Notes under the pieces: generated by a model
The model's database searches: none
The model's input: only the letters and a program-made list of their open reading frames with translations
What the model was told of the DNA's origin: nothing
Program-made: the position numbers and the translations under genes
Shown: piece after piece, positions 2,791 through 6,657 of the stretch
How positions within the stretch are numbered: the stretch's first letter is position 1
How the letters are laid out: every line of letters begins with the position of its first letter
Source: an uncultured delta proteobacterium
GTDB lineage: Bacteria > Desulfobacterota > Syntrophorhabdia > Syntrophorhabdales > WCHB1-27
NCBI GenBank assembly: GCA_963810935.1
Contig: CAWEPK010000012.1
Coordinates: 416,691-480,690, forward strand
DNA length: 64,000 bases
Reading direction: 5' to 3'

Positions 2791-3357
2791 ATGGCAGCAA
2801 AACGAATATTGACTGAGTCTGAAAAAACTAGGTTAGAATCATCCACGAAGAGATGGCTGGCGGAGTGCGAACGTTGGATGAGGCACTTCAAGGCGCTGCG
2901 GCCCGACCCAATGGAACAAGGGTTTCCGTCCAATGTCGACAGTTTCTTAATCAGTGCTACCTATTTTATTGTCGCTGCGGGTTGCGTTTATTTACACTGT
3001 AAAAGTCTGCTTGAAGCCAAAACGGGTTCAAAACAAACGGCCGATAAGTGGCTTGCGGATCGTCTCAAAGAACGGCCTGTATTACAGGCCTTAGTCGATC
3101 GCCGCAACTGGATCAACCATGGAGCACTGTACAGAAACCCCAATTATACGCTAACGTTTGTCCAGGTGGAAGGCGTTGACAGAACGACGGCTGATCTTGT
3201 TTATGAGGCTGCCAAGAACAAAGGCTCCGTGATTTGGAACGCTGGCAATACCTTTTGCTGGATCGCAGAAGATGAGACTATTGAACATAGCGTTACTTAC
3301 TGGCAGGAGAAAGTAGTATCTGAACTATCAGAGATGGTTAGGGATATTGAGCAATAA
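2791..3357 (+). CDS. Hypothetical protein with HEPN-like R-X4-H motif
   Basis: GGGGAG RBS before ATG 2791; AT-richer than host genes; RNWINH motif. Confidence 0.55.
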   Translation: MAAKRILTESEKTRLESSTKRWLAECERWMRHFKALRPDPMEQGFPSNVDSFLISATYFIVAAGCVYLHCKSLLEAKTGSKQTADKWLADRLKERPVLQALVDRRNWINHGALYRNPNYTLTFVQVEGVDRTTADLVYEAAKNKGSVIWNAGNTFCWIAEDETIEHSVTYWQEKVVSELSEMVRDIEQ

Positions 3358-3449: not shown

Positions 3450-3475
3450 GAATATTCGGTAGTGTCTCAGTTTGA
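3450..3475 (+). repeat. Left target-site duplication (GAATATTC, 3450-3457) plus left IR
   Basis: Read directly from the sequence. Confidence 0.95.
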
Positions 3476-3517
3476 CGGATTGTTTTGTTGTTGATGAGTG
3501 AAGAAGGCTACGGCCTA

Positions 3518-3526
3518 TGTTATAAT
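3518..3526 (+). promoter_or_regulatory. Extended -10 promoter (TGtTATAAT), probably giving a leaderless mRNA
   Basis: TATAAT at 3521-3526 with 7 nt between it and ATG 3534; no RBS. Confidence 0.6.
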
Positions 3527-3533
3527 AAATATT

Positions 3534-3764
3534 ATGCCTAAAGGACCAAGGGGGCAGAAGAGACCCGCCGATGTCATAGGCAATGCCATAGTGGTTGCCA
3601 AGATTGCTACCGGCGAGATTACTGAAGAAGCCAACGGCAAAGAGTATGCCCGCGAGGGTGGGCGGAAGGGCGGAGCACTCAGGGCTAAGAAACTATCTTC
3701 TGCCAGACGAAAAGAAATTGCTCAAAAAGCCGCCCAGGCCCGCTGGGGCAAGAAAGAAAATTAG
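3534..3764 (+). CDS. Small basic IS-associated protein (histone H1-like / KGG-type tail)
   Basis: MPKGPRGQKRPADVIGNAI..IATGE and GRKGG..RAKKLS..RRKEIA.KAA.ARW, a pattern I recognise from genes beside this transposase type. Confidence 0.8.
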   Translation: MPKGPRGQKRPADVIGNAIVVAKIATGEITEEANGKEYAREGGRKGGALRAKKLSSARRKEIAQKAAQARWGKKEN

Positions 3765-3909
3765 TCCCATTTCCCCGCATAAATAAACGATTTTTGCTTT
3801 CTGGAAAATTCTTAGGAAAAAAAGGACTTGCTTTTTACACTGCTTCTCATGCAGAATATATACAGTTCTGCTGTAGGGAGATAGAAAAGGTAAGGGAGGA
3901 GGTGGTTGA

Positions 3910-4515
3910 TTGCTAAACGAAGGTGACTTTACAAGGGTTATTGGGAAGTACTTCGAAGCGATTCAGGAGTGCATCGAGGCAGGGTTCAACCGCTGGTTTG
4001 CGGTACCCGCAGAGTTTAGGATCGCGGCGTCTCCACGTACAAGGGCAAATTTTATTCACGATTTCATTCGCGATGAAGCTCTGAGGCGTTTTTTGCATGT
4101 TCCAGAGATAGAGTTATTGGAAGTCCGGGGGCTGTTTTTGGTCAAGTTCGGGGAAGATGTATTATTGAGGTTCAAGAAGTTTGATAGGTATTTCCGTCCG
4201 CAAAATATCCCTACTGGTCAGACAAAATTGTTCTCACGGCAGGGAGTACAGGAATCCCTTTTTGGAGTTCCTTTTGCTACGAAGGTTATTGCCGGGTATC
4301 AAACGGATAAGGCACACGCTGAAATCCAATGGACGGGCATAACATGCCCCGAAGGAAAGCATCTACATTGGTACATTAACTTCGAAAAACCTTCCACCCA
4401 AGTTCTTCCTTTCCAGACTTATCAAGAAACAACACAAGAGTCTGGCCCCGTCGCAGAACCGAGGCCGAAGGAGAATTTGAAAAACAATGAGAAGAGAGGA
4501 GACAAAGAAATTTAA
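3910..4515 (+). CDS. Hypothetical protein, candidate toxin/effector
   Basis: Strong GGAGG RBS before TTG; overlaps the start of the XRE-peptidase gene; motifs RTRANFIHD, LRFKKFD, IAGY. Confidence 0.7.
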   Translation: MLNEGDFTRVIGKYFEAIQECIEAGFNRWFAVPAEFRIAASPRTRANFIHDFIRDEALRRFLHVPEIELLEVRGLFLVKFGEDVLLRFKKFDRYFRPQNIPTGQTKLFSRQGVQESLFGVPFATKVIAGYQTDKAHAEIQWTGITCPEGKHLHWYINFEKPSTQVLPFQTYQETTQESGPVAEPRPKENLKNNEKRGDKEI

Positions 4516-5563
4516 TCCAGACATGCTGATCATGGCGCGCAAATCAAGGGGGTTAACACAAAGCGATTTAGCAACTGCTCTTGCAATGACTTCATCTCAC
4601 CTATCTAAAGTTGAGGGTGGGATGACACCTTTTCCAGAATCGAAACTGGACGAATTATCGAATGCGCTCAAGTATCAGGAAGATTTCTTTTACAGGGGGG
4701 AAAGGTTCTTGGGGATAGGTCCGGCGTTTGTGTACCATAGAATGCGGCAAAGTGTTTCAAGCAAGCTAATAGAGAAGATCGAAGCACAGGTGAACGTCTA
4801 CCGTATACACATTGAGAGGCTTCTCCGTTCCGTAGAAATCGCGGAATGCAAAATCCCTTCTTACGATTTGGATGAACTGGGGAACAATGCGACACCGGAA
4901 GACGTTGCACGTAACATTCGTGCCTCTTGGTTTATTCCGAGTGGTCCGATAATGGACCTTGCCCAAGTCATAGAAGCTGCGGGCGGAATTGTCATTCCAT
5001 ATGACTTCGGTACGATGCAGATTGACGGTGTGAGCCAACGTGTTCGGCCACTTCCGCCTTTGTTCTTCATAAACAAGAATATTCCTGGCGATAGGTGGCG
5101 GTTTTCGCTGGCCCACGAACTCGGCCACATAATTCTTCACGATAGTCCACGTCACGATATGGAAAAAGAGGCTAACCGCTTTGCGGGTGAGTTTTTAATG
5201 CCCGCATGTGACATCGGACCGTCCGTGTGTTCACTCGGCTTCGGTAAGTTATTCGATCTCAAAATGTATTGGAAATGTTCGATGCAAGCGATCATCAAAC
5301 GGGCCAAAGACATGCAAACGATATCGGAACGGACTGCGTACTATCTTTTCGCCCAACTATCTAAGGCAGGGTATAGGACCAAAGAGCCGGGCGAATTTCC
5401 ACGAGAGCAACCTACGTTATTGTCAAAGATTATTGAGGTATATCTGAACAAGCTTGGATATACAGCAGAGGAAATGTGTAACCTGTTGGCGATTTACTCC
5501 GGGGATTTTAATACGCTTTATGCCGATACCTCAGAGAAGCGTCATTTGAGGCTGGCAGACTAA
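4487..5563 (+). CDS. XRE-family HTH + ImmA/IrrE (Peptidase_M78) zinc metallopeptidase
   Basis: N-terminal ARKSRGLTQSDLA...LSKVEGG HTH; RFSLAHELGH (HExxH) and EKEANRFAGEFLMP. Confidence 0.93.
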   Translation: MRREETKKFNPDMLIMARKSRGLTQSDLATALAMTSSHLSKVEGGMTPFPESKLDELSNALKYQEDFFYRGERFLGIGPAFVYHRMRQSVSSKLIEKIEAQVNVYRIHIERLLRSVEIAECKIPSYDLDELGNNATPEDVARNIRASWFIPSGPIMDLAQVIEAAGGIVIPYDFGTMQIDGVSQRVRPLPPLFFINKNIPGDRWRFSLAHELGHIILHDSPRHDMEKEANRFAGEFLMPACDIGPSVCSLGFGKLFDLKMYWKCSMQAIIKRAKDMQTISERTAYYLFAQLSKAGYRTKEPGEFPREQPTLLSKIIEVYLNKLGYTAEEMCNLLAIYSGDFNTLYADTSEKRHLRLAD

Positions 5564-5633
5564 GGGGGCACTTATGTAAAAAAATAGGGGTAAACGACCC
5601 GGTACCCAACCATCGCGTTTACCCCTGACCAAT

Positions 5634-5707
5634 ACCCCTGTAGCTCAAACGGACAGAGCGGCTCCCTCGAAAGACGCTGGCTCCGGGTTCGAGCCCCGGC
5701 AGGGGTA
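5634..5707 (+). tRNA. Non-canonical tRNA-like RNA (nominal anticodon CGA; possible pseudo-tRNA)
   Basis: Acceptor ACCCCTG/CAGGGGT, D-arm GCTC/GAGC, T-arm CCGGG-TTCGAGC-CCCGG; anticodon stem has 2 mismatches; 5-nt variable loop; no encoded CCA. Confidence 0.75.
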
Positions 5708-5762
5708 CTCCTATATTCTATACATATTTCTCGTGAAAAAAAAGTTTTTCTTAACCTGAAAA

Positions 5763-5797
5763 TTATGCTTGACACATAAGCATAAATTTCATATAAT
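5763..5797 (+). promoter_or_regulatory. Consensus sigma70 promoter for the transposase with an overlapping inverted-repeat operator
   Basis: TTGACA (5769-5774)-N17-TATAAT (5792-5797); TTATGCTT-N7-AAGCATAA (5763-5785); ATG at 5804 without RBS. Confidence 0.85.
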
Positions 5798-5803
5798 AAG
5801 AAC

Positions 5804-6640
5804 ATGCACAAGCTGCCCATATCAAAGCGAGTCCAAATCCTTCAGATGCTTTGTGAAGGCGCTTCCATGCGGTCTATCTCCAGAGTCGCGGACGTATCCA
5901 TAAACACGGTAACCAAGCTGCTTGTGGATGCCGGTAAAGCCTGCTCGGACTATCAGGACAAGGCCCTCCGTAACCTGCCCTGCAAGCGAATCCAGGCCGA
6001 CGAAATTTGGTCGTTCTGCTATGCCAAGGAAAAGAACGTCCCCGACGACAAAAAGGGCTGGTTCGGTTATGGCGGTGTCTGGACCTGGACGGCGATAGAT
6101 GCTGACAGCAAACTTATCGTTTCATGGCTGGTAGCCGACCGGGGGGCAAGGGCAGCGATGGAGTTCATAAGCGATCTGGCCGAGAGGCTTCAGAACAAGA
6201 TGCAGCTTACCACGGACGGCCACAAGGTCTATTTGAACGCGGTAGAAAGAACCTTCGGCGGCGAGATAGATTATGCGATGCTCCAGAAAATCTATGGGAC
6301 GGAACCGGAAGGCGAAAAGAGATACAGCCCTGCGAAGTGCTTAGGGGCAGACAAGTCGATCATCTGTGGACGGCCCGACGAAGAGCACATATCAACAAGC
6401 TACGTCGAGCGGCATAATCTCACCATGAGGATGAACATGAGTCGGTTTACTCGCCTGACGAACGGATTTTCTAAGAAGGTCGAGAATCATTGTCATGCCC
6501 TCGCCCTCTGCTTCATGGCTTACAACTTTGTGCGGATTCACAAGACCTTGAGAGTAACCCCCGCGATGGCCGCCGGAGTGACGGACAGACTGTGGACGAT
6601 GGAGGATATAGTAAATTTGATCGATGAGAATTCAAACTGA
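5804..6640 (+). CDS. IS1-family DDE transposase
   Basis: N-terminal HTH ([12 protein letters not shown]); QADEIW, TTDG and [13 protein letters not shown] catalytic motifs; RVTPAMAAG tail. Confidence 0.95.
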
Positions 6641-6657
6641 GACACTACCGAATATTC
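6632..6657 (+). repeat. Right IR plus right target-site duplication (GAATATTC, 6650-6657)
   Basis: Read directly from the sequence. Confidence 0.95.

Follow-up and report, generated by a model that had tools for sequence, protein, structure and literature searches.

Insertion sequences (IS) of the IS1 family have inverted repeats (IRs) that start with GGT and duplicate 8-9 bp of their target. The concept of the transporter IS (tIS) is defined in PMC9330008. The present work concerns an IS1-family element in a stretch of 64,000 nucleotides, the window, from an uncultured delta proteobacterium (contig CAWEPK010000012.1). The element occupies positions 3458-6649 of the window and is 3192 bp long. 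Judged from its sequence, it is a tIS of the IS1 family and so of a known kind, with GGT-starting IRs, an 8-bp duplication, passengers upstream of the transposase and a DDE transposase that is encoded in a single open reading frame (ORF) and has a helix-turn-helix (HTH). The family to which it belongs differs from other IS1 and tIS elements by a basic gene that is fixed beside the left IR, a consensus promoter for leaderless transcription, cargo that lies to either side of the transposase and a tRNA among the cargo of about one member in four. A first-pass annotation of the window had called the element the best candidate for a new system. The element type is known, and what is possibly new is a part that this annotation did not describe, namely a cassette of a tRNA and antisense signals.

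The cassette resembles several described RNA systems. In type I and type VIII toxin-antitoxin (TA) systems, including CreTA, a toxic unit is faced by a small cis-antisense RNA that has a promoter and a terminator of its own, and in type VIII both partners are RNA. The predicted toxin discussed here is a folded mis-decoding tRNA, which sets it apart from small membrane proteins and tRNA-sequestering mini-ORFs. The Streptomyces tRNAProA/ProX, a case of deliberate mistranslation, is another natural tRNA in which anticodon and charging identity differ. Unlike it, the IS tRNA is mobile and would depend on the arginyl- or seryl-tRNA synthetase (ArgRS or SerRS) of the host; no dedicated synthetase was seen in the cargo scan, which covered 147 of the 298 cargo ORFs (chassis ORFs excluded, lower size limit ~95 aa). 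Allo-tRNAs share with the IS tRNAs a body that disagrees with the anticodon, destabilised stems, TA and transposon-related neighbours (PMC5389517, PMC7609411) and the use of UAU, UAG and UUA anticodons on Ser-like bodies. Toxicity in E. coli is a feature of allo-tRNAs, and cells were killed by one that combines Ser identity with a Leu anticodon (PMC5389517). The IS tRNAs differ from them in a normal 7/5 acceptor branch, not 8/4 or 9/3, and the main IS class has an Arg-type short-arm body with Ser anticodons and is found inside IR-bounded IS1 elements. The word 'antisense' is absent from the main texts of these two papers, and a literature search that covered few subscription journals found no description of an IS-borne tRNA/antisense pair. 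The allo-tRNA papers left function open; the present work names a vehicle and gives mis-decoding bacterial tRNAs a testable role.

We put at slightly less than an even chance the reading that the element is an autonomous IS1-family tIS with two independent cargo modules, one of which is a tRNA poison under antisense control. The sense RNA would fold as a tRNA that SerRS should not charge, given its short arm, and that ArgRS may charge through A20. At Ser codons it would insert Arg or, were charging poor, cause ribosomes to stall, and this would be costly or toxic. A leftward promoter at the tRNA 3' end and a minus-strand terminator past its 5' end would give a cis-antisense RNA of ~115-160 nt that keeps the tRNA silent. 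The toxin-antitoxin transcript of the window would end with the tRNA, and the antisense promoter there would be weak. Together the tRNA and its antisense RNA would act in addiction or abortive infection as a module of RNA alone, next to a protein pair like RosmerTA. A wider proposal, possible but rather doubtful, is that a widespread, cross-phylum IS1 lineage carries an all-RNA TA cassette with a mis-decoding tRNA as toxin and a cis-antisense RNA as antitoxin. The toxin would be either an Arg-body tRNA with a Ser anticodon or a Ser-body tRNA whose anticodon is Ile, Leu, Tyr or ochre, and when host transcription failed (phage infection, element loss) the stable tRNA would outlast the antisense RNA and corrupt translation. 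If true, this would mean a new kind of TA architecture, in which an antisense RNA controls a tRNA that acts as toxin, and it would make such tRNAs natural tools for Ser-to-Arg missense decoding.

The tRNA-like gene of the window lies at 5634-5707 on the plus strand and has an Arg-type short-arm body, the Ser anticodon CGA and no encoded CCA. It matches Rfam RF00005 with 49.3 bits (gathering threshold 29, E 1.3e-8). ARAGORN labels it tRNA-Ser(CGA), and mis-decoding tRNA genes of this sort, which receive the labels tRNA-Ser, -Ile or -Leu, mislead annotation. It is not a canonical tRNA-Ser(CGA), as it has a 5-nt variable loop and A73; SerRS requires a long variable arm, and tRNA-Ser has G73 or U73 (PMC5389517). 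Bacterial Arg identity is set by A20, which is the main determinant, together with C35, U36 or G36, and A73 or G73 (PMC9976931). The window tRNA has A20 and A73 and lacks the two anticodon determinants. Its 7-bp acceptor stem and 5-bp T stem are perfect. Because only A20 and A73 are kept and the anticodon stem has two mismatches, the tRNA may be weakly charged. A reading with an 8-nt loop and a quadruplet anticodon, which corresponds to the minimum-free-energy fold, was set aside: the relatives hold the 7-nt register and the element needs no frameshift. One relative, G060, shares with the window the left IR, the basic gene, the gene pair, the hairpin and the CGA loop. Over positions 1-53 the two tRNAs are 87% identical, whereas the ORFs are 71-73% identical and their third codon positions 48%. 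The combination of an Arg body and CGA recurs in L094, L101, L106 and L158. The tRNA list of the source genome, whose assembly may be incomplete, includes three tRNA-Sec genes (C4, C6 and C11) and no canonical tRNA-Ser(CGA) or tRNA-Ser(GCT).

The first-pass annotation had advised that genomes be searched for the IR and the transposase and that the cargo be catalogued, and this was done. A transposase search of genome contigs gave at least 552 relatives, of which the best 80, with 60-81% identity and from many phyla, were kept. With the window they form a first set of 81 loci, and an IR pair was found in 66 of them (65 relatives and the window). A second set comprised 56 non-redundant loci and yielded 14 further tRNA-carrying loci, three of them through a tRNA pattern. 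ARAGORN found 16 tRNAs in 195.5 kb inside elements and 6 in 548.5 kb of flank. On the transposase tree, a quick version with weak deep support, tRNA presence is scattered, with 6 changes versus a shuffled mean of 6.5. This type of tRNA accompanies many cargoes that are unrelated to one another, and elements with the same families of cargo can lack a tRNA. As far as sequence can tell, the tRNA is a separate, recurring module that is independent of the gene pair. Most of the tRNAs lie ~60-350 nt before the transposase, and some lie after it or on the other strand.

Body and anticodon were compared in 38 IS-internal tRNAs with an isotype classifier whose leave-one-out accuracy on host tRNAs was 21/24. 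They disagreed in 36 of the 38 and in 3 of 11 tRNAs outside the elements; of the two IS-internal matches, that of L188 is due to a parsing error. Among the 38 there are 24 short-arm tRNAs with a Ser anticodon (13 GCU, 6 ACU and 5 CGA), six of which were collected through anticodon patterns, and here the disagreement follows directly from the short arm. A20 is present in 22 of these 24, and Arg is the best or tied-best body in 19. The 19 relatives with GCU or ACU have C35 and U36 as well; they carry the main Arg determinants and should therefore misread AGY codons. Long-arm Ser-like bodies with UAU, UAG, UUA, GUA or AUA anticodons account for another 9 of the 38. Covariation is seen at 17 of the 21 pairs of the cloverleaf. 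Over 37 tRNAs (L188 was left out for poor parsing) there are 26 G-U pairs and 6 A-C pairs on the sense strand (p 5e-4). This excess means that the sense strand is the selected fold, and the antisense strand was rejected as the selected fold on the same counts. The sense fold and the body-anticodon mismatch are observed, and the function proposed above is inferred.

We regard it as highly improbable that the tRNA supplies or restricts decoding of the element's own genes, through private codon control of the transposase or Ser-to-Arg recoding. The two elements with UAU have 3 and 5 ATA codons versus a mean of 1.9 (p 0.12), as such a role would predict. However, 11 carriers of GCU or ACU have 6.5 AGY codons and 61 non-carriers 6.0 (p 0.35), TCG codons number 3 in the window versus a mean of 3.1, and only 1 of the 72 AGY codons of carriers falls in a column where Arg is the majority. 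Codon matching between tRNA and transposase was not supported by the AGY, TCG and Arg-column counts, which weakens this reading for the Arg-body class.

It is unlikely that the tRNA is instead a decoy, surrogate substrate or sensor for toxins that cut or modify tRNA, with the antisense unit only tuning its level. The anticodon loops CUCGAAA and CUGCUAA, which equal canonical Ser loops, are host-like and sit on a non-Ser body. Several cargoes are RNases or are directed at tRNA (MazF, HigB, NYN, PBECR2, Schlafen, RelA/SpoT), and the anticodon stem is the least paired helix (81.5%), which would suit a non-translating RNA. On the other hand, cargoes of unrelated kinds also accompany this tRNA type, and the same families are found in elements that have no tRNA. 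The ACU anticodon (6 of the 24) to our knowledge mimics no standard bacterial tRNA, and retention of A20 points to recognition by ArgRS.

The tRNA type was also sought outside this family. A metagenome pattern for short-arm CGA tRNAs gave 29 matches, of which three (L094, L101 and L106) precede a transposase of the present type and two adjoin IS1595 transposases; the pattern gave none in viral contigs. The tRNA cassette may thus not be confined to IS1. A second group of short-arm CGA tRNA-like genes (L085 and L090, also L086, L097, L098, L099, L102 and L112) has one anticodon-arm sequence in common. Two of its members lie beside IS1595 transposases and others beside DUF3800, GmrSD, Schlafen or DUF4238 genes. 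The viral contigs L173-L196 contain 21 short-arm tRNAs with GCU or ACU and no transposase match in the locus, and in L186 several stand in tandem. Two irregular tRNAs in tandem precede the transposase in L013 (5670-5843), L151 and L168, like the irregular tRNA polycistrons described in PMC5389517.

Signals for transcription in the opposite direction were found on both sides of the window tRNA. A unit resembling an intrinsic terminator lies at 5578-5626 on the minus strand and consists of an 11-bp stem (5586-5596/5616-5626; ~-21 kcal/mol) and then a U7 tract (5584-5578). It is 84% identical in G060, with a consistent stem change, and a generic terminator scanner missed it because of a loop limit of 3-8 nt. 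On the other side a candidate antisense -10, TAGAAT, lies at 5715-5720 on the minus strand, 7 nt from the tRNA discriminator (N73). The antisense -35 of the window is poor (TTTTTT), and relatives have a TTGACA-type -35 at the matching place.

Both signals recur in the family. The hairpin just 5' of IS tRNAs has a mean of -19.1 kcal/mol versus -9.2 at host tRNAs. An A-rich tract precedes it and no T-rich tract follows it, a pattern typical of a terminator that acts on the other strand. An antisense terminator was found just 5' of 13 of 23 IS tRNAs and 3 of 39 host tRNAs. The rule for it was fixed before it was applied to 14 held-out tRNAs, found later, and 9 of these passed (p 7e-5). Among the similar tRNAs of viral contigs without a transposase match, 4 of 21 passed. 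At 13 of 29 near-transposase tRNAs (7/13 and 6/16) a leftward sigma-70 -35 of the TTGAC type follows the discriminator by 30-52 nt; the corresponding rates are ~7.5% in tRNA-less elements (matched distances), 2 of 36 for host tRNAs and none of 11 for outside tRNAs. When all leftward -35 motifs within 15-75 nt are considered, 9 of 18 lie at 34-40 nt, which implies an antisense start at the tRNA 3' end. The complete unit of promoter and terminator is present in 6 of 13 elements with a tRNA versus 4 of 67 without. The elements in these counts are related and so are not independent, and three loci of the second-set -35 test had already been viewed in the earlier terminator analysis. In the sense direction, a promoter with a TTGACA or TTGACT -35 lies well upstream of the hairpin and tRNA in five first-set members and closer in a sixth. 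Others lie downstream of a plus-strand cargo gene.

Several observations tell against a tRNA poison under antisense control. The interval of 30-52 nt for the leftward -35 was picked after both sets had been viewed, so that this test was not blind, and the -35 is missing at 16 of the 29 near-transposase tRNAs. The window and the three other CGA-type elements tested are without a TTGACA-type leftward -35. A crude best score for antisense promoters overall did not distinguish IS tRNAs from host tRNAs (p 0.25). Elements without a tRNA also have a minus-strand terminator at the junction (30 of 67) or a leftward promoter (17 of 67). In the allo-tRNA-UAU class, none of six amber variants suppressed, and two caused cell death (PMC5389517). 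In the window tRNA itself, the anticodon stem has its two mismatches and G35 and A36 stand in place of the Arg determinants. The G060 tRNA is a truncated copy that ends in the T arm, with no transposase or right IR within ~16 kb after it.

The signals of tRNA-less elements are what would be expected if promoter and terminator were chassis features and the tRNA, with an incidental anticodon, served to insulate the cargo operon structurally from the transposase promoter or as a processing site between the two; the usual place of the tRNA shortly before the transposase agrees with this as well. We judge it decidedly unlikely, since the anticodons are strongly non-random (24 of 38 are Ser on short bodies and 9 of 38 are non-Ser on Ser-like bodies), CGA is kept between the window and G060 despite the divergence of third codon positions, and some tRNAs are not placed between cargo and transposase in this way but after the transposase or on the other strand. 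The mismatched anticodon stem, the missing C35, the poor antisense -35 and the truncation in G060 could also mean that the window tRNA is a decaying passenger without current function. That is very unlikely in view of the perfect acceptor and T stems, the higher identity of the tRNA than of the ORFs between the window and G060 and the recurrence of the Arg-body/CGA type in four other loci.

The other cargo module of the window is a gene pair. RosmerTA systems have been described (10.1101/2022.05.11.491447, PMC10440598); their antitoxin, RmrA, joins an HTH to a Zn-peptidase, and their RmrT toxins are diverse. In the window an unnamed gene at 3910-4515 on the plus strand encodes a putative RmrT-type toxin of 201 aa with a weak PD-(D/E)xK-like fold. 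It is followed at 4487-5563, also on the plus strand, by a gene for an RmrA-like antitoxin of 358 aa with an XRE-type HTH, an M78/ImmA Zn-peptidase domain and the motif HELGH. The two genes overlap by 29 nt in the window and in G060. The second protein matches Pfam HTH_3 and Peptidase_M78 and 14 PADLOC RmrA models (best E 5.8e-57), and the layout, with a toxin-sized gene first and then the XRE-M78 gene, is that of RosmerTA. The first protein differs in matching no PADLOC model and in having a nuclease-like fold, as opposed to a membrane-acting toxin. It has 1085 relatives among cluster representatives (50% identity clusters, E<=1e-3), which adds a large unnamed family of RosmerTA-like partners. 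Across 146 members, no Pfam or PADLOC family was found apart from stray single matches, and none matched an RmrT model. An AF2 model of the protein (pLDDT 89) bears a modest resemblance to the restriction endonucleases NaeI (Z 6.3, root-mean-square deviation 3.8, 131 aligned) and EcoRV (Z 5.9). Foldseek searches of the pdb and viral sets gave no match at E<=0.001, and the ESM Atlas gave unnamed clusters only. The conserved residues of the family are R43, R45, D51, R87, K89, K90, T102, Q114, G129, Y130 and W154.

The pair looks like a RosmerTA-like system with a nuclease-fold toxin and an XRE-M78 antitoxin. Two points count against the nuclease assignment: the matches to NaeI and EcoRV are below the level that the tool considers distinctive (Z 8), and the conserved residues are not a canonical PD-(D/E)xK set, D51 being the sole strongly conserved acidic residue. 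The pair would protect the host against phage or stabilise the element. The first-pass annotation had treated the unnamed gene, the peptidase and the RNA as one system, and this did not hold up. The four plasmid homologues found with a family member all lie directly upstream of an XRE/ImmA-type gene, and neither an IS1 nor a tRNA is annotated beside any of these pairs, while the tRNA has many unrelated cargoes. A three-part system was rejected on further grounds as well. The profile of the unnamed gene matched no cargo ORF in the other 80 first-set loci, a tRNA was found in L015 only among the loci with an XRE-M78 gene, and the partner genes in three other XRE-M78 elements are unrelated to the unnamed gene (hhalign probability <1%). 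Of the relatives, G060 alone keeps all three parts, and there the tRNA is incomplete and no transposase follows. Searches with the unnamed gene gave no new locus in the metagenome or in 400 phylum genomes. The window protein was unmatched in plasmids and phages, and the family member P0045 was unmatched in phages.

The annotation was right that the middle of the element is a variable slot for TA or defence genes. The families found there are XRE-M78 (7 above cut-off), Panacea (5), P63C (5), SDH protease (5, one of them below cut-off), HigB/Gp49 (3), MazF (2), NYN (2) and AAA_21 (2). RelA/SpoT, Schlafen, RhuM, N6 methylase and PBECR2 also occur, and many cargo ORFs have no family. Small IS1 units thus spread diverse TA and defence genes across many phyla. 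In BLASTP comparisons the P63C and RhuM cargo proteins of L008, L010, L012, L019, L059 and L070 group with the basic chassis protein and may therefore have a basic motif in common with it.

The anatomy of the element agrees with the earlier description, which listed perfect 18-bp IRs, a palindromic 8-bp duplication, an intact transposase and about 2.3 kb of cargo (a basic protein, the unnamed gene, the XRE-M78 peptidase and the tRNA-like RNA). All of these were found. The left IR is at 3458-3475 (plus strand) and the right IR at 6632-6649 (minus strand); the two 18-bp repeats are 100% complementary, the right one contains the transposase stop codon, and the same IR type bounds the 65 relatives. 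The left IR lies 2346 bp before the transposase. The target-site duplication (TSD), GAATATTC, is 8 bp long and palindromic and lies at 3450-3457 and 6650-6657. Because it is palindromic and present at both ends, a repeat search reports a 26-nt inverted pair. An 8-bp duplication is found in 54 of the 66 IR-bounded elements, the window included, and is evidently a family trait and not chance. These elements are 1993-4969 bp long. The GC content within the window element is 44-53%, compared with ~58% for the genome.

The transposase gene (5804-6640, plus strand) encodes 278 aa without a stop or frameshift. The protein matches Pfam DDE_Tnp_IS1 (PF03400) with 28.1 bits (cut-off 24.1), and its best NCBIfam match, NF033558, has E 6e-18 and a score of 65.5, below the cut-off of 100. 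D66, D138 and E202 form the DDE triad, and each is kept in at least 97% of the 81 sequences. Together with the GGT-type IRs and the 8-bp duplication, these results confirm membership in IS1. An HTH spans residues 2-38, and no zinc-finger motif was seen at the N-terminus. With this HTH and the upstream passengers, the element may possibly belong to the ISMhu11 subgroup, which lacks an N-terminal zinc finger and carries passengers upstream. The transposase promoter of the window is a perfect consensus, TTGACA-17-TATAAT (5769-5797, plus strand; feature 5757-5797), and is overlapped by an operator-like palindrome with 14-bp arms (5757-5791), which would probably limit transposase expression. Upstream of the transposase, 59 of 80 loci have a forward promoter with a score of at least 10/12. 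The most frequent spacing between its -35 and the ATG is 35-36 nt, so that the transposase mRNA, also in the window, would be leaderless.

A small basic chassis protein of 76 aa (19 K/R versus 8 D/E) is encoded at 3534-3764 on the plus strand. An extended -10 (TG-n-TATAAT), read by eye at 3518-3526 on the plus strand, lies 7 nt before its ATG and may serve as its promoter, and the transcript is probably leaderless. In 64 of the 66 IR-bounded elements no more than 700 nt separate the gene from the left IR, which bears out the claim that this gene and the transposase form a fixed chassis. The protein has no Pfam or NCBIfam family, and one plasmid homologue is annotated as 'RNA-binding protein'. 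It is a probable DNA-binding accessory or repressor.

That the element is a recent mobile unit, as was also claimed, is probable from the perfect IRs, the TSD and one soil contig (run X2, from the same study, matched at 90% likeness) on which the right end at 6649 is joined to a different 255-nt flank, which suggests a second insertion site. An empty target site, which the annotation had advised looking for in relatives, was not found: the left flank was unmatched in 22 relatives, and none was seen in four DNA runs of one study. The source genome (G000) has a single copy of the element. Directly to its left, at 2791-3357, is an AT-rich orphan ORF of 188 aa with no Pfam, NCBIfam or PADLOC match and no DNA match in the 22 relatives, and the insertion point is the edge of this already foreign patch.

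A second IS1 cargo element is present in the source genome at G000:C7:395579-399334 (partly locus L129), with the TSD GCCCGGCG and a transposase that is 46% identical. An A-rich tract and a strong hairpin, both of the type described above, precede its ochre (UUA) tRNA-like gene at ~397918-397987, and an internal motif like the right IR is present near 396704. In two other loci, L041 and L043, an identical element with identical flanks was found in metagenome-assembled genomes of different phyla, and this is likely due to mis-binning or very recent transfer. A non-autonomous unit of 839 bp at G000:C12:272380-273218 has IRs of the family type, lacks a transposase and a clean 8-bp TSD, and contains an ORF of 143 aa that by eye only resembles MazF/PemK.

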